This document shows, piece by piece, positions 6,688-49,822 of a stretch of 64,000 nucleotides of DNA. Each line of letters opens with the position of its first letter. Positions within the stretch are counted from its first letter, which is position 1. The notes beneath the pieces are model-generated. The model had not been told where the DNA came from. It made no database searches and saw only the letters and a list, made by a program, of their open reading frames with translations. The DNA lies in the IMG/VR virus record IMGVR_UViG_3300032309_003726. The stretch is one strand, 5' to 3'. Source of the stretch: an uncultured virus (IMG/VR IMGVR_UViG_3300032309_003726) (lineage: Duplodnaviria > Heunggongvirae > Uroviricota > Caudoviricetes). The translations under genes and the position numbers were made by a program.

Positions 6688-8850
6688 ATGAAAAGTTTCA
6701 ATGAATGGCTTGTTGAATCCTCGCTGAGACAACAATTAAAAGTACCGCAGAACCCTAAGCATCACCCTGAAGGGGGTGTGGATCGCCACACAATGATGGT
6801 GCGTTCGGCATTAGAGCCAGCTATAAAAATTTTACAAGAAAAACAAAAAGACGATCCAAATGGTCCATTGTCTAATCTCGATTTAAGTTTTACTTCAGAA
6901 GATGTGAATGTATTGCGTCTTGCTGGTTTGCTGCACGATATAGGTAAAGGCGACACACTAGACCCAAAAACGTTAAGTGCTCACGGTCATGAAGATCCAG
7001 AGAACTTTGAGAAGGCCATGCAAAGACTAGGGCCAGCGTGGCATAACATGTATGGCCAAGCCAACTCAATGGATAAAGAAGATTTATGGTGGGTTATAAA
7101 ATACCACATGAGCCTCAAGGATGAACAAGGTTTTCAAAACAAATCGCTTAAAAAAGAATTATTAGATGATCAAGGAAAATATAAATCAGATCGTAAAATT
7201 AAATTGTTATTGGTATTTTTATTGATGGATCGAATGGGTCGTGGTGGGGAAAGCGGAATACCTTGGCAAAAAGCAAAACAATTTGCCCAAAGCAACGCAT
7301 CAGCAGCAGAAAGGGGACTAGGCGGCATAGACACCACCGCACATGTGTATAAAAAAGATCTTGATAAAATATCTGCTCGTGCAAGCAAACCCATGTCCAA
7401 TGACCCTGTTGACTTTGTTGCAAGCATGCGTGAAAAAGGTAAGCCTAATGAAATAATTAAATCAGCTTTAAAAGGCAGATTTCCAAATTTAAACGATGAA
7501 GATATTAAAACTCTACTGGGCGAATCGAGAATGAGATTCAAAACATTTATAGAAGCAACCGAACACGAAATAAGGGCAAGGCTACCTTTAGAAAAAGATG
7601 TTTTTACTTTGGCAAAAATTTTTAAAGAAAACGGACACCAGATATATGTAATCGGTGGATCTCCAAGAGACTTTTTAAGACACTACTTTACAAAACCTGA
7701 TGAGCCTTTTGATGCAAGCAAAACAAAAGATATAGATTTAACAACAGATGCGACTCCAGATCAAGTGGAGGATATGTTAAACCGAGCCGGAATTAAAAAT
7801 TTTGACAAAGGTAAATCTTTTGGAGTGATGGTTGCAAACATAAATGGGGAAGATTACGAGATAGCAACTTTTCGTGAAGACTTGGGTTATAGTGATGGTC
7901 GTCGTCCTGATAAAGTTCGGTGGGCAGACATGCACACAGACTACAGGCGTCGAGATTTGACCATGAATGCTATTTATTATCAAATTCCATCATCGCCCAA
8001 TGAAGAAGGTGTTTTTGTTGATCCAAGCGGTGGTCAAGGATTTGAAGATATCAAAAATTGGCAAGTTCGAATGATTGGCGATCCTTTTGAAAGAATAGGA
8101 GAAGACAAACTTAGAATTGCCCGAATACCTCGTTTTCACTCTTATTATAACAACGATGACATAAGGGGCGTTTTAGACAAACCAACACTAGATGCCATAG
8201 AAAAATTCAAAGATATGAGAAATAATGGCGTTACAGGTCCACGCATCCAAGCAGAGTTTTGGAGCGGACTCAAAAAATCCGCTAATACAGTTTCATATTT
8301 AAAAAACTATGAATCGTTAGGTTTACTATCGACTGTATTCCCTGGAATGGAACTAGACATGGAATCGGTTGATCGTTTGAATCACGAAGAAATTCACCAA
8401 ACAAAAACAAATGGATTCGATCACGCTGTTTTGGTTCTCGCCTTGTTGTTGAGAAAAAACGGATCTCCAGATAAAATTCGCTCGGAATTAAATAAACTAG
8501 AGTGGCCAAATGAAGTAAGTGATGGCGTGGCATTTGTTTTAAAATCTTGGGAAGCAGCAAAAAACCCCTCGCCTGAATCGATGAGTAGGGTTGCTCAGGA
8601 AATATCTAAAAAACCAAATAGAATTAATTTATTGTCACGCTCTCGTCATGTAACGCACGATGATGTCGATAAGGATCATCTGCATCATTTAGGGCAATAC
8701 GAAATGCCAAAATATAGTGGTGAAGAAATACAAAAAGAATTAGGATTATCAAAACCAGGGCCAGAGGTTGGCAAAGAAATTGCCAAACGTATAGCCGACC
8801 ATTACTCGGATAGTTTTTTCAAATGGAAAAATCGACCACCAATGGCTTGA
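6688..8850 (+). CDS. cca: HD domain + class II tRNA nucleotidyltransferase (CCA-adding enzyme / polyA polymerase family) fusion
   Basis: HHPEG..HT and LLHDIGK (HD); then GGSPRD, DIDLTT, EIATFRED, DGRRPD, RRDLTMNA, EDKLR. Confidence 0.88.
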   Translation: MKSFNEWLVESSLRQQLKVPQNPKHHPEGGVDRHTMMVRSALEPAIKILQEKQKDDPNGPLSNLDLSFTSEDVNVLRLAGLLHDIGKGDTLDPKTLSAHGHEDPENFEKAMQRLGPAWHNMYGQANSMDKEDLWWVIKYHMSLKDEQGFQNKSLKKELLDDQGKYKSDRKIKLLLVFLLMDRMGRGGESGIPWQKAKQFAQSNASAAERGLGGIDTTAHVYKKDLDKISARASKPMSNDPVDFVASMREKGKPNEIIKSALKGRFPNLNDEDIKTLLGESRMRFKTFIEATEHEIRARLPLEKDVFTLAKIFKENGHQIYVIGGSPRDFLRHYFTKPDEPFDASKTKDIDLTTDATPDQVEDMLNRAGIKNFDKGKSFGVMVANINGEDYEIATFREDLGYSDGRRPDKVRWADMHTDYRRRDLTMNAIYYQIPSSPNEEGVFVDPSGGQGFEDIKNWQVRMIGDPFERIGEDKLRIARIPRFHSYYNNDDIRGVLDKPTLDAIEKFKDMRNNGVTGPRIQAEFWSGLKKSANTVSYLKNYESLGLLSTVFPGMELDMESVDRLNHEEIHQTKTNGFDHAVLVLALLLRKNGSPDKIRSELNKLEWPNEVSDGVAFVLKSWEAAKNPSPESMSRVAQEISKKPNRINLLSRSRHVTHDDVDKDHLHHLGQYEMPKYSGEEIQKELGLSKPGPEVGKEIAKRIADHYSDSFFKWKNRPPMA

Positions 8851-9542
8851 ATATAGAAGAACAATATTGGTTAAAAAAAACTAAAGTTCCAAATATTCTT
8901 CAAGAAGCAATCAAAAAACACCAAAATAAAAAATTAATTGCGATTGACTTAGGTTGTGCTGGTGGTAGGCTAACAAAATACATAGAACCGTTATTTAAAA
9001 AAGTTTATGGAATAGATTTGTGTAAAAGTTTAATTGAAAAAGCTTCTGCATCGAATACTTCGATTGATTTTGTGTGTGGGGATTTTGGTGATCCAGATCT
9101 GTGGGGGAGGATAAGTAAATCGTTCGATGTGATAGTGAGCGATTGTGCTATTAGAAAAGATTATGTTGATTTAAATTGTGTGGCTGATATTTTCACCAAT
9201 AGGCTAAGCCCAAATGGGTCAGCAATATTACGAATTCAAGAAAAAAGTGATTTAAGTAATTTATTAGATTTAAAAACTAGAGAAAAAATATTTTTTTCTA
9301 AACAAGAAATATTGAAATATTTTTCAAAATTTGAAGTAGAAATAAAAGAAGAAAATTATAAACAAAAATTTTCTAACACAAAATACATTGAAGAATATCT
9401 CAAAAAAATTAATATAAAAAAAGAAAATAAAAACTATCAATTAAAAGCAAATAGAAGTTATATTTTGGTTATTGCAAAAAAAATTGAGGCATCCTTGCCT
9501 CTTTTGCATCATGCAAAACCATCCATGAAATCCCCATCCTAG
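8823..9542 (+). CDS. class I SAM-dependent methyltransferase
   Basis: AIDLGCAGG motif I, VYGIDL, FDVIVS. Confidence 0.8.
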   Translation: MEKSTTNGLNIEEQYWLKKTKVPNILQEAIKKHQNKKLIAIDLGCAGGRLTKYIEPLFKKVYGIDLCKSLIEKASASNTSIDFVCGDFGDPDLWGRISKSFDVIVSDCAIRKDYVDLNCVADIFTNRLSPNGSAILRIQEKSDLSNLLDLKTREKIFFSKQEILKYFSKFEVEIKEENYKQKFSNTKYIEEYLKKINIKKENKNYQLKANRSYILVIAKKIEASLPLLHHAKPSMKSPS

Positions 9543-9550
9543 GGAAGCTA
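9476..9550 (-). ncRNA. putative CsrA/RsmA-binding small RNA (CsrB/RsmY-like)
   Basis: Minus strand: UCCCUAGGAUGGGGA, UCAUGGAUGG, UUUUGCAUGAUGCAAAA, GAGGCAAGGAUGCCUC then U-run; TAAAAT -10 box at 9556-9561. Confidence 0.6.
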
Positions 9551-9660
9551 TGAAAATTTTACACAAAGATAAATCTTGTATATGATTATCTTTTTATACA
9601 AGATATTTATGATAAATAATCGCAGAGATTATTCAATCGTGTATCGATTCAAAAATTAAT

Positions 9661-9867
9661 TCAAAGAATCGGTGAATCGGTGACAACAACTTCGATACCA
9701 AAAGCACCTGCTCTAAGGAAAGCTGCGTAGCCCATTTTTTTTATTTTCTGCAAAAGATCTGAAATCTTTTGTCCATCTTTAACAACAATATTCACAGAGA
9801 CGTTGTTAATGTCTTTTTCAAAATCAACTAAATCATCACTTAATTTTTTAATGTCTTGTATAAGCAT
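9661..9867 (-). CDS. hypothetical protein
   Basis: 68-aa ORF. Confidence 0.5.
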   Translation of the reverse strand: MLIQDIKKLSDDLVDFEKDINNVSVNIVVKDGQKISDLLQKIKKMGYAAFLRAGAFGIEVVVTDSPIL

Positions 9868-9882
9868 AGAATATATTAGTTT

Positions 9883-10341
9883 TTAGATTATATTTTTTCT
9901 TTTTCTTTTCTTGGATCTATTTTCTAAATTAATATAAAATACATATGATCTTTTATTCGGTACTAATAATTTGCTACGATCAACAGCTCTGAAGATGAGT
10001 CTTAGCCTTGTGTTTGGGTTTTCGTAAGTCAAAATTTGTTTTAATTTACCAAGCACAGAAATTATAAACTCATAGGATCCTGAGATTCTTATTCCATCTT
10101 CTCCGTAACTTGATCGCTCGACACCTTCGGGTTTTTCTGTCATGGGATGGATGACTATGGGCATATCCGGTTTGAGTGCTTTCCAAAACCTAAGAATCTC
10201 TGCTTTTTTAGCTGACCAGAGTTTTTCTTCAACTTCAATATTTTGCTGCTGTGGAGTTAATTGATTTGACTGAGTTTGATTGTTATCAAACTCATTTATT
10301 ATGAAATCAATAAAATTATTAAATTCTTTGAAGGAAGACAT
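9883..10341 (-). CDS. hypothetical protein with capsid-targeting-like N-terminus (start revised to 10341)
   Basis: MSSFKEFNNF preceded by ATAAATA box; the longer start would overlap the + strand gene. Confidence 0.65.
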   Translation of the reverse strand: MSSFKEFNNFIDFIINEFDNNQTQSNQLTPQQQNIEVEEKLWSAKKAEILRFWKALKPDMPIVIHPMTEKPEGVERSSYGEDGIRISGSYEFIISVLGKLKQILTYENPNTRLRLIFRAVDRSKLLVPNKRSYVFYINLENRSKKRKRKNII

Positions 10342-39003: not shown

Positions 39004-39035
39004 AAACGGCTAGTGTTTTAAAACACTAGCCGTTT
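39004..39035. terminator. bidirectional intrinsic terminator (32-bp perfect palindrome)
   Basis: AAACGGCTAGTGTTTTAAAACACTAGCCGTTT between the convergent gene and tRNA-Pro. Confidence 0.8.
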
Positions 39036-46836: not shown

Positions 46837-46924
46837 AAGACAAGACAGGAGTTGAACCTGCAACCTCCGTCCAAAGATGCAAACCTTCTTACAATGACGG
46901 ACTCTACCGTTGAGCTACTTGTCT
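46837..46924 (-). ncRNA. tRNA-like RNA with 24-nt expanded anticodon loop
   Basis: AGACAAG/CTTGTCT acceptor, GCTC AACGGTA GAGT D-arm, CCGTC-N24-GACGG, GCAGG TTCAACT CCTGT T-arm. Confidence 0.75.
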
Positions 46925-47001: not shown

Positions 47002-48579
47002 TCACTCTAAGGATGTTCTATTTATTTCTTCAACCCAATAATCTTCGCTTTTAGATTGAGAAACAAAAGAAGCGATAACGTCAAACACCTGATCCGAGAA
47101 TCCTCCGACTTGAAGAACATCTTTTTTGGTGCAAATTTGAGAGTTATCTCTGGGGGTAAGGTCGCAACAAATTAATTTGGCGTGGTTGTTACGCTTCTTA
47201 AAAATATCCCACTCATAAGACAAACCAGTGGGGTTATAACCGTAAATAGCCGAGGTGGAATCGATCCAAGATTCGTAATCCGACACATATAAAATCCAAT
47301 CGGCATTTTTATAGTCTGTATTAAAACGATGCATCGGTGCCGATATGTTGGTGCCACCACCAGCAAGATTTAATTTTTGTGTGTTTTTTAGCACATTATC
47401 TTTTGGGTTCAACTCAACCATATTGGCGTTATCAGAGAAGGTCCAAATCTCAACTGATTTATTTTTTCGATATACGGCTGATGCCATCAACCCAGCAACA
47501 TCGCTGCAAGAAACACTTGAACTAACTCTGCGGTGTCCAAAACCAGTTATTGGGGAACCCATGGATCCGGAACAATCGATACAAACCAAACCCTTGCCCG
47601 GAATTTCTGGAACATTGCTAATTGCAATTTCCATTGCGGACTCCAGTGCCGATTTGATCATTTGTGGAATATTCTGATCGTCCATTTGTCTCCAAGCGGC
47701 AAACAATTGGTATGGGAAAGCACGAGATTTTTTGATTAATTGGTCGTCTTTCAATTTGTTTGCCACAATCCTAACAACGTCTTCATTATTGAAAACGCCG
47801 TGTCTGGCAAAAGTCGAAAGATTCATCCTTGTCATCTGCCATGGGGACTGGGTGGCAATTGCCTCCCACTCTTTTTGACCAAGGTTCAAAGAATCCAAAA
47901 ACCTAAAATCAACATCGGGAATATTTTTTGTTTTCCCCGACTTGAAATCTTGAAGTTTTTTAATTTGATCCGGGAGTTTTTCAATATCGAATTCTTTCCC
48001 TGACAGGTAAGCAAACAAGGATTGTTTTTCAATCGAATTTGGTCTTGGATGCGACATTCTTAAAATGTCGTGCATGGTCGGATTGTTGCCTATAGAAGCT
48101 TTAAAAATACTGAGGGAGTTTTGAGTATTAAACCACTCTTGTATGGCGTGTCTCCAACTTCCTGCCGACACATTAATTTTTTTTCCGGTTACAGCCCCAC
48201 TCCGTGCCATTTGAATAACATTTCGAAGCATTTTTCCATTGTCAACCACACGACGAAAAACCTTGCGAAACAAAGGCTTGCTGATGTCCGAGAGCAACAC
48301 TGTCAAGAAGCAAGGCATGTCTTTCATGTAGGACTTATCACGAGAATAAATTGCTACTTTTGCAATAAATTCTGGGTCGTTTTTTAAACGCAGGGCGGCT
48401 TCTTTAGCTAAATTAAAATTTTGCTCTGCGGTTGCATAAAAGGTTCCATTAAACGTGTTTGTGGCAGCAACTTGAGCCAAACAATGCCTTGGATCAAAAT
48501 CGCAAGCATCGCCGCCAGCGTTATTTTTTCTGTTCGCAGAAAATTTGGTTTTAGTCGAAAAAATATTATTGTTGGACAT
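47002..48579 (-). CDS. rsr: Ro60/TROVE domain RNA-binding protein with vWA domain
   Basis: N.AGG.A, TFY, KDMP, DNGKMLRN, RMNL.TF.RHG, SR.FPYQ, MIDAS DCSGSM, GGGT, VSDYESW, VGGFSD. Confidence 0.93.
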   Translation of the reverse strand: MSNNNIFSTKTKFSANRKNNAGGDACDFDPRHCLAQVAATNTFNGTFYATAEQNFNLAKEAALRLKNDPEFIAKVAIYSRDKSYMKDMPCFLTVLLSDISKPLFRKVFRRVVDNGKMLRNVIQMARSGAVTGKKINVSAGSWRHAIQEWFNTQNSLSIFKASIGNNPTMHDILRMSHPRPNSIEKQSLFAYLSGKEFDIEKLPDQIKKLQDFKSGKTKNIPDVDFRFLDSLNLGQKEWEAIATQSPWQMTRMNLSTFARHGVFNNEDVVRIVANKLKDDQLIKKSRAFPYQLFAAWRQMDDQNIPQMIKSALESAMEIAISNVPEIPGKGLVCIDCSGSMGSPITGFGHRRVSSSVSCSDVAGLMASAVYRKNKSVEIWTFSDNANMVELNPKDNVLKNTQKLNLAGGGTNISAPMHRFNTDYKNADWILYVSDYESWIDSTSAIYGYNPTGLSYEWDIFKKRNNHAKLICCDLTPRDNSQICTKKDVLQVGGFSDQVFDVIASFVSQSKSEDYWVEEINRTSLE

Positions 48580-48928: not shown

Positions 48929-49822
48929 TCAAAAACAATCGAAAGAAACGCCGATCCGCTCACACTGCCGATGCATTTTTTCCAAAGCCCTTGTTTCAAT
49001 TTGACGAATTCTTTCTTTAGAAAGCCCAAACTCCGAGGCTATATCGATTAGTTTTTTAGAATCAAAAAATCGTCTTTTTATAACTTTTTTTTCTCTTTCG
49101 TTACAAAGATTCAACAATTTTTTAATAACTAAGAGCCTGTCTGTTTGTTCAAAAACTGCTTCAAAATCATGATCAAAAACGGCCGTTTGGGTGCCGGATT
49201 CATTCAAACAAGTAGAATTTCGTTCTTCAAAGTTGCGCCAAGATTTTAAAGATCTATAAAGATTTCTTTTTAGAACCCAAGTTGCGTAAGTAGAAAACTT
49301 AAAGCCCCTATTGGGATCAAAATAATCAACAGACTTCAGGATCAGGTCACAGCCTTCCGAAAACAAATCGTCAAGCCTGTGGTGTTCTCCCATCTTCTTA
49401 ACAACAGGAACACACAATCTCAGGTTTGCTGCGGCTATAGTATTTCTAACATCATCAGCCAAAGCAAGATCTCTAAGAGATTTTGTGATCTCTTTTTTGT
49501 GTAATCTTTTTTTTGCTCTGTATTTGTAGAAATTGTATTTTTTAAACAAATGAGTTTCTTGTTCCTTGGTCAACAAGGGACTTTCATAAAAAATTCGAGA
49601 TTGAAAATTGTTACCGCTAAAACAATATTTTGATCTTATTGATCTTAATTCCTCTAAAAAGATTGAATAATTTGGCATGGGTCCAAGAATTTTTTTGACT
49701 TCTGATGGTTTTTCAAAGTCTTCGTGAAAAAATATTCTTTTTAGACGCTGTTCGGCGTCAGCCAAAACAGCATCTTTTTGATTTTTCTTTAATTTATTGA
49801 ATTTTAGAGTTGCGGAAACCAT
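48929..49822 (-). CDS. RNA polymerase sigma-70 family factor
   Basis: LLTKEQE.HLF, ANLRL, FDPNRGFKFSTYATW, LSKERIRQIETRALEK. Confidence 0.92.
   Translation of the reverse strand: MVSATLKFNKLKKNQKDAVLADAEQRLKRIFFHEDFEKPSEVKKILGPMPNYSIFLEELRSIRSKYCFSGNNFQSRIFYESPLLTKEQETHLFKKYNFYKYRAKKRLHKKEITKSLRDLALADDVRNTIAAANLRLCVPVVKKMGEHHRLDDLFSEGCDLILKSVDYFDPNRGFKFSTYATWVLKRNLYRSLKSWRNFEERNSTCLNESGTQTAVFDHDFEAVFEQTDRLLVIKKLLNLCNEREKKVIKRRFFDSKKLIDIASEFGLSKERIRQIETRALEKMHRQCERIGVSFDCF

Follow-up and report, generated by a model that had tools for sequence, protein, structure and literature searches.

A probable bidirectional terminator with GGA-bearing loops between convergent transcription units of a huge freshwater phage

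The stretch of DNA analyzed here, 64,000 nt from an uncultured virus (IMG/VR record IMGVR_UViG_3300032309_003726) and hereafter called the window, carries near position 9500 a short structured element lying between two convergent transcription units. All coordinates refer to the window, and the features of the element are read on the minus strand unless another strand is stated. The plus-strand unit comprises a gene (6688-8850, plus strand) for a 720-aa protein that joins an HD domain to a CCA-adding enzyme (PolyA_pol head), and the end of this gene overlaps at 8823 the start of an S-adenosylmethionine (SAM)-dependent methyltransferase gene (239 aa, 8823..9542, plus strand; Pfam Methyltransf_31/25/11 and FtsJ; PHROG 4752 'tRNA methyltransferase'). 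The minus-strand unit comprises an open reading frame (ORF) of 152 aa (9883..10341, minus strand) and, as its last gene, an ORF of 68 aa (9661..9867, minus strand) that is 84-90% identical in relatives. The 68-aa product matched no Pfam or PHROG family and the 152-aa product no family, and neither gave a usable Atlas lead. An initial annotation of this DNA had proposed that the minus strand of the element encodes an RNA sponge for CsrA. We lean, with moderate confidence, toward a plainer function, namely a bidirectional terminator that also provides the 3' end or 3' untranslated region (3'-UTR) of the minus-strand two-gene unit.

The sequence given for the minus strand in the initial annotation proved exact, base for base. 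In the direction of reading, a '-10' candidate TGTAAAAT (9563..9556), in which TAAAAT is invariant among three genomes and the bases 5' of it vary, is followed by hairpin 1, UCCCUA-GGA-UGGGGA (9545..9531), with a GGA triloop. The linker region behind it (9530..9519) reads UUUCAUGGAUGG, includes the segment CAUGGAUGG (9527..9519), holds a second GGAUG and fits the CsrA-site consensus CANGGANG, as quoted in the initial annotation. Hairpin 2, UUUUGCA-UGA-UGCAAAA (9518..9502), is weak and GGA-free. Hairpin 3, GAGGCA-AGGA-UGCCUC (9501..9486, present on both strands), has a 6-bp stem with 4 G-C pairs and a loop AGGA lying within CAAGGAUG, and the element ends with AA followed by eight U residues (9485..9476; the U8 tract itself at 9483..9476). 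The reported GC enrichment is likewise real, the core at 9486-9545 having a GC content of 48% and its flanks 16.5% and 31.5%. There are four GGAs in the element, two of them in loops, one in the linker and one buried in a stem.

A terminator appears to be the best-supported function of hairpin 3. A terminator scan flagged this hairpin on both strands; hairpin 3 itself accounts for two of the 4 terminator-like sites in the surrounding 2-kb region, where 0.9 would be expected. On the minus strand a stem of 6 pairs (4 of them G-C) with a loop of 4 nt is followed by AA and U8, and on the plus strand the same stem is followed by UUUUGCAU. The placement also suits a terminator, as on the minus strand hairpin 3 follows the stop codon of the 68-aa ORF by 160 nt, and on the plus strand it comes immediately behind the position at which methyltransferases of this family usually end. 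Its energy is -8.0 kcal/mol on the minus strand and -8.9 kcal/mol on the plus strand, and at most 1 of 200 shuffled sequences is as stable. Hairpin 1 reaches -5.7 kcal/mol. Hairpin 2 reaches -4.0 kcal/mol, is matched by 32 of 200 shuffles and is displaced by an alternative pairing in the window's own 74-nt fold. On both strands a 111-nt stretch is somewhat more stable than its shuffled versions (z = -2.64 and -3.02), but the 74-nt element taken alone (9549..9476) has an unremarkable fold (z = -1.24, with 25/200 shuffles as good).

We infer that transcription terminates at hairpin 3. Placed between an A-run and a U-run, the hairpin would act Rho-independently in both directions, the minus-strand stop using the U8 tract and the plus-strand stop a weaker U4. 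Hairpins 1 and 2 and the linker would then be transcribed from the minus strand only, as a small structured 3'-UTR module, and the GGA loops would need no function of their own. A loop GGA was found in 5 of the 109 strong terminator-like hairpins of the close relative G001, a 458,813-bp IMG/VR phage contig, compared with 73 of 2337 hairpins overall, which is approximately the background rate. Bidirectional Rho-independent terminators occur between convergent bacterial and phage genes, and the element resembles them in its GC-rich hairpin with A-tract and U-tract sides, in its position between convergent units and in scoring on both strands. It differs from them in the short plus-strand U-tract (UUUU), in the two extra conserved hairpins on one side and, in genomes with an A-run of eight (A8), in the location of the hairpin within a run-on frame.

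This run-on frame also bears on the claim that the element is antisense to a methyltransferase tail. The claim is true by coordinates, but the tail lies outside the conserved protein. A protein search returned 13 methyltransferase homologues, and 10 of the 12 that were aligned (P0003-P0012) have their C-termini no more than about three residues away from window residue 220 (...VIAKK). P0003, which is 80% identical, ends in KKN*, corresponding to the other frame of the window. The conserved methyltransferase thus ends at about residue 220 (9482), its last conserved Lys-Lys being encoded by the A8 run that is the plus strand of U8 (9476..9483), and residues 221-239 are a run-on across the element up to a plus-strand TAG within hairpin 1 (9540-9542).

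Translation of the three plus-strand frames of the window accounts for the tails of its relatives. The window and P0001 continue in frame 0; so does G001, in which a U.G to C-G change in hairpin 1 removes the TAG and the tail is 10 residues longer. In G002, a second close relative (a 177,312-bp contig), frame 0 passes into frame 1 after a 1-nt deletion, the tail of P0002 follows frame 1 and then frame 2, and P0003 stops immediately in frame 2. Five close relatives show four different tails from the same DNA, differences that trace to an apparently variable A-run (A7, A8 or A9) and to one deletion. For P0002 and P0003 the length of the run was inferred from their protein tails. With A9 the methyltransferase would stop (KKN*) at the foot of hairpin 3, while with A8 or A7 the frame would run on into the element and give unrelated tails. 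The deletion in G002 also breaks a 41-aa frame on the minus strand. The nucleotides are kept while the protein reading of neither strand is kept, and the element is therefore effectively intergenic, non-coding on both strands. Judging from these sequences, the methyltransferase 'tail' is a reading-frame run-on and a homopolymer artefact rather than a genuine feature of the protein.

The window is collinear with G001, 60,366 of its 64,000 bases aligning at 70-95% identity. DNA matches to the stretch came mostly from freshwater and lake metagenomes, and no RNA run was among the 20 runs listed for it. Searches of viral contigs with the methyltransferase and the 68-aa protein recovered only G001 and G002 as further relatives. 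A search of metagenome contigs gave 58 loci, of which one was G001 and 57 were generic SAM-methyltransferase matches. The wider methyltransferase alignment added one truncated match, one weak match and two distant relatives (L096 and L097, methyltransferase 44% identical), in which a convergent 135-aa ORF abuts the gene and the element is absent. Since these two lack it, the element appears restricted to a narrow clade with the 152-aa/68-aa unit and is not bound up with the methyltransferase gene itself. Exact 35-nt and 22-nt cores of the element were present in only G001 and G002 among viral contigs and in none of the genome contigs, and no paralogue or other similar stretch was found in G001 or the window.

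Within this clade the element is well preserved. The 71-nt core shows one substitution and one indel across the three genomes (window, G001 and G002), hairpin 3 is invariant in all three, and the loop GGAs of hairpins 1 and 3 are identical. The substitution replaces the U.G pair of hairpin 1 in the window by C-G in both G001 and G002, and the indel is the loss of one A of the 3' arm of hairpin 2 in G002. Synonymous change in the neighboring gene relative to G002 ranges from 8/73 to 32/108 codons. The element matches G002 at 70 of 72 positions, and 6.2% of all 72-nt windows and 19% of the non-coding ones reach this figure; its conservation is real but not exceptional, being ordinary for the non-coding DNA of this clade. 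The conserved-loop and covariation check suggested in the initial annotation thus succeeded for the GGA loops, found in 3/3 genomes, and gave no support for the stems: there were no compensatory changes in 19 pairs (18 invariant, one changed on one side, none on both) among three sequences too similar for covariation to show.

Several observations weigh against a plain terminator. Hairpins 1 and 2 and the linker, which a terminator could dispense with, are nearly unchanged (in 60 nt, one wobble to Watson-Crick substitution and one 1-nt deletion), and the adjacent upstream spacer (9575-9674), unlike the element, is only 78-88% identical. In A8 genomes, a plus-strand transcript ending at hairpin 3 would lack the stop codon of the methyltransferase frame. 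Furthermore, the GGAs of hairpin 1, the linker and hairpin 3 all share a C-N-N-GGAUG context, and such a triple occurred in none of 30 simulated genomes, for a motif that was defined post hoc. Finally, the lineage encodes two CsrA proteins, and FliW was not found in it.

These points lead to the strongest alternative, which we regard as possible but rather unlikely: a minus-strand RNA of about 75-185 nt, ending at the U8 terminator, that binds a dimer of the phage's or the host's CsrA. It could be transcribed as a small RNA from a start near 9550 or 9602, or could belong to the mRNA of the 68-aa gene as its 3'-UTR; its sites would be the loop GGAs of hairpins 1 and 3, separated by 45 nt, and the linker GGA. 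Such an RNA would act as a low-capacity decoy, similar to two-site small RNAs and not to CsrB, or would place the stability or termination of its own transcript under CsrA control. This reading is compatible with hairpin 3 as a terminator. The fit to CANGGANG is 8/8 for hairpin 3 (CAAGGAUG), 8/8 for the linker (CAUGGAUG) and 7/8 for hairpin 1 (CUAGGAUG). Partition-function folds were computed for seven constructs, short and long, taken from the window and, in the two relatives, from loci L001 and L002. In all seven the loop GGAs of both hairpin 1 and hairpin 3 have a probability of about 1.0 of being unpaired, which upholds the initial placement of two GGA sites in hairpin loops. The sequence and the predicted fold thus combine a loop GGA, a short hairpin and a CANGGANG-like context, as expected of a high-affinity CsrA site. 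The exposure of the linker GGA varies with the transcript assumed (per-base probability of being unpaired 0.02-0.97), and the fourth GGA (GGGGA) is buried within a stem. Two reliably exposed sites fall short of a many-motif decoy, and the CsrB-like array proposed in the initial annotation is not borne out. The unremarkable fold of the 74-nt RNA, the lack of covariation and the commonness of this level of conservation also speak against a CsrA-binding RNA. In addition, the tail of P0002 would imply a change by which hairpin 3 loses its closing pair in the minus-strand RNA, the plus-strand RNA retaining a G.U there.

Motif statistics give a divided picture. The three ANGGA sites counted in about 60 nt by the initial annotation are present, but their number is not above chance: three A(N)GGA within 60 nt occur 16 times in the window, compared with 26.7 ± 5 in 100 simulations. 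Three GGAUG within 60 nt are unique in the window, and in the 458 kb of G001 the element is the only place with such a triple apart from one coding acidic repeat; about 0.6 such clusters are expected per simulated genome by chance. Pairs of GGA-loop hairpins under strict criteria number three in G001, and the two besides the element lie inside long open frames. Under loose criteria, two or more GGA loops are found in 6 of 384 non-coding strand-segments of G001. Among the 59 stretches retrieved by a degenerate three-GGAUG pattern, a U-run together with loop hairpins of 6 or more pairs was seen in only the two already known, and most of the remainder look like tandem repeats. Other candidate decoys were examined and rejected. 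Dense CANGGANG/GGAUG arrays at G001:C1:121190-121420 (minus strand) and 425740-425990 (minus strand) are coding acidic repeats (EDEDMEGMED... and DEDEDYED...), a cluster near csrA2 lies inside an ORF, and the GGA-richest non-coding segments of G001 show no loop display, one of them being a tmRNA/intron. Acidic coding repeats of G001 thus mimic decoy RNAs in motif scans, and GGA-motif counts alone fail to separate CsrA sites from the background in AT-rich phage DNA.

Comparison with RNA families gave no support to a sponge. With Rfam, no Csr/Rsm/McaS-type match was obtained at E<=10 in 9000-10000, where only three chance-level matches appeared (two snoRNAs and ARRPOF), or at gathering scores in the whole window, where only 3 tRNAs were found; the Rfam check named in the initial annotation was therefore negative. 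As regards an independent gene, a terminator is present and the start is doubtful. The promoter scan did not pick up the '-10' TGTAAAAT, which lacks a matching -35, and the promoter assigned to it initially is not upheld. An 18-nt near-copy of the '-10' region (6836..6819) lies antisense within a gene and was set aside. A sigma-70-like match, TTGAAT-16-TATCAT (9636..9609, minus strand; 9 of 12 positions), in the spacer after the 68-aa ORF, is kept in all three genomes, reading TATTAT in G002, and could give rise to an RNA roughly 125 nt long. The number of promoter-like sites in this region does not exceed that in shuffled sequence (6 against an expected 10.1). The phage may use promoters missed by a sigma-70 consensus scan, because it encodes a sigma-70 family protein of its own (regions 2 and 4; 48929-49822, minus strand).

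The proteins of the lineage are more favorable to a CsrA-binding RNA. Two CsrA homologues are encoded in each of G001 and G002 (68.5 and 54.7 bits, Pfam cut-off 27; PHROG 9500 'CsrA-like regulator'), one canonical and one divergent paralogue per genome. The genes lie at C1:272241-272384 (plus strand; csrA1) and 246305-246463 (minus strand) in G001, and at C1:132677-132820 (plus strand) and 105108-105266 (minus strand) in G002. The protein antagonist FliW was found in neither record. CsrA1 aligns to RsmE/CsrA structures (E 1.4e-11) and keeps Leu2, Leu4, Arg6, Arg44 and Ile47, which we take to be RNA-binding residues, and its RNA-binding surface looks intact. The nearest matches of CsrA1 in a pattern-limited genome scan were metagenome-assembled genomes (MAGs) of Planctomycetaceae/Pirellulales at 56-60%, together with Ignavibacteriota, Gemmataceae and Legionellaceae, which gives only a lead toward the host. 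The check for csrA in the phage was positive in the two relatives, and no csrA was found in the 64-kb window (best tblastn E 0.05). The csrA genes lie outside the window, at least 28 kb away in G001, and about 38 and 64 kb from the element. No CsrA was found in the three records of distant relatives, each only 2-21% complete.

Further hairpins of G001 are related to this subject. G001 has the pattern GGCAAGG..TGCC at two places, one being hairpin 3 and the other lying 55 nt upstream of the csrA1 start, which may point to a connection with csrA; however, the loop of the csrA1-leader hairpin is AGGGU (or GAGGUU) and not GGA. This leader (L007 1430-1500 = G001:C1:272170-272240, plus strand) forms a hairpin GGGCA-AGGGU-UGCCC with a U-run that resembles hairpin 3, its loop in G002 being GAGGUU, and carries two conserved GGAs at and just before the Shine-Dalgarno sequence. 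Another leader hairpin, AAAUGAUCA-GGA-UGGUCAUUU at G001:C1:450227-450270 (plus strand), lies about 10 nt before GGAGG and AUG, a layout like that of a CsrA-repressed leader.

The CsrB/CsrC and RsmX/RsmY/RsmZ decoys of Gammaproteobacteria contain roughly 5-22 sites. The element shares with them loop and linker GGAs, a Rho-independent terminator end and a CsrA-family protein in the lineage. It differs from them in having two reliable sites, no covariance-model match and no recognized promoter, in placing a GGA in the terminator loop itself and in being phage-borne. McaS of E. coli is a small two-site CsrA-binding RNA, and the high-affinity hairpin selected by SELEX is RUACARGGAUGU. The element is similarly short, with two loop GGAs at a spacing that a dimer could bridge, and hairpin 3 presents CA-AGGA-UG with paired flanks; unlike McaS, to which it has no sequence relationship, it is known from sequence alone. 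Alleles of csrA have been reported in 30 of 2517 phage genomes, in a survey whose available passages describe only proteins and name no phage RNA partner (PMC7366521). The lineage of the window adds to this survey two CsrA paralogues in a huge phage, with csrA genes that here lie outside the window. The literature searched (titles, abstracts and some passages) yielded no phage-encoded CsrA-binding RNA, in agreement with the statement of the initial annotation that no phage Csr sponge RNA is known to have been characterized.

A less probable alternative is a base-pairing or cis-antisense RNA, in which the 3' end of the minus-strand transcript overlaps that of the methyltransferase mRNA, or the linker seeds another mRNA, altering stability or translation. 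The linker and loops are invariant in sequence and not merely structure-preserving, and the convergent units overlap by at least 60 nt in A8 genomes, both of which speak for such an RNA. However, no target was identified, the element is single-copy in G001 and the window, and the antisense overlap is absent where the run is A9 (P0003). Overlapping 3' ends are moreover a common by-product of shared terminators. We consider this alternative improbable. Plus-strand recoding, in which A_AAA_AAA and hairpin 3 would prompt -1 frameshifting or transcriptional slippage so that A8 makes both ...KKN* and extended forms, is very improbable: the heptamer stands in the zero-frame X_XXY_YYZ register, its -1 frame gives the KKN* end of P0003 at the family-usual length and a stable hairpin follows, but the spacer to hairpin 3 is only 3 nt whereas stimulatory structures typically lie 5-9 nt downstream, zero-frame tails are not conserved, and hairpins 1 and 2 are left without a role.

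Other features of the clade were noted alongside the element. An orthologue of Ro60 is encoded at 47002-48579 (minus strand; Pfam vWA_Ro60 1.2e-14, TROVE 1.5e-12), and 78 nt downstream of it lies an 88-nt 'tRNA-Thr(tgt)' (46837-46924, minus strand; Rfam tRNA 43.4 bits). The two together resemble a Ro protein paired with a Y-RNA module of the tRNA-like kind. G001 has a tmRNA match of 82.7 bits (G001:C1:122834-123390, plus strand; L075 2834-3390), the 3' end of which is overlapped by a group I intron match (65.5 bits). About 29 of the 237 upstream regions of G001 carry a motif TACCAACTAG(G), which is enriched 8-10 fold and has no exact copy in the window; in one example (G001 350203-350240, plus strand) it folds into a CUAGGGGGG...CCCCCCUAG hairpin. 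At 39004-39035, beside a tRNA-Pro, lies a perfect 14-bp palindromic hairpin that is terminator-like on both strands, in a stretch highly conserved with G002. The clade is unusually rich in RNA biology, with two CsrA proteins, Ro60, a CCA-adding enzyme, tRNAs and, in a relative, an intron-bearing tmRNA.

Taken together, the initial observation was partly confirmed and the sponge interpretation partly supported. What remains appears to be a conserved terminator-proximal module, two loops of which show a near-consensus CsrA site, in a lineage with two CsrA proteins. On the reading that we favor, the element would be the 3' end of the 152-aa/68-aa transcription unit of a huge freshwater phage where it meets a convergent plus-strand unit, and the apparent gene antisense to a protein tail would be an intergenic terminator crossed by a frame run-on via a variable homopolymer. 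A slightly more tentative and unlikely proposal is that this huge freshwater phage has a Csr module of its own, consisting of two CsrA proteins, no FliW and a terminator-embedded small RNA that binds a CsrA dimer. If true, this small RNA would be the first RNA of a phage to serve as partner or antagonist of CsrA, and through it the phage could buffer CsrA, its own or that of the host, in the course of infection. RNA control of CsrA would then extend from a few bacterial lineages to viruses, and the element would offer a compact two-site model RNA for study together with a phage-encoded CsrA.

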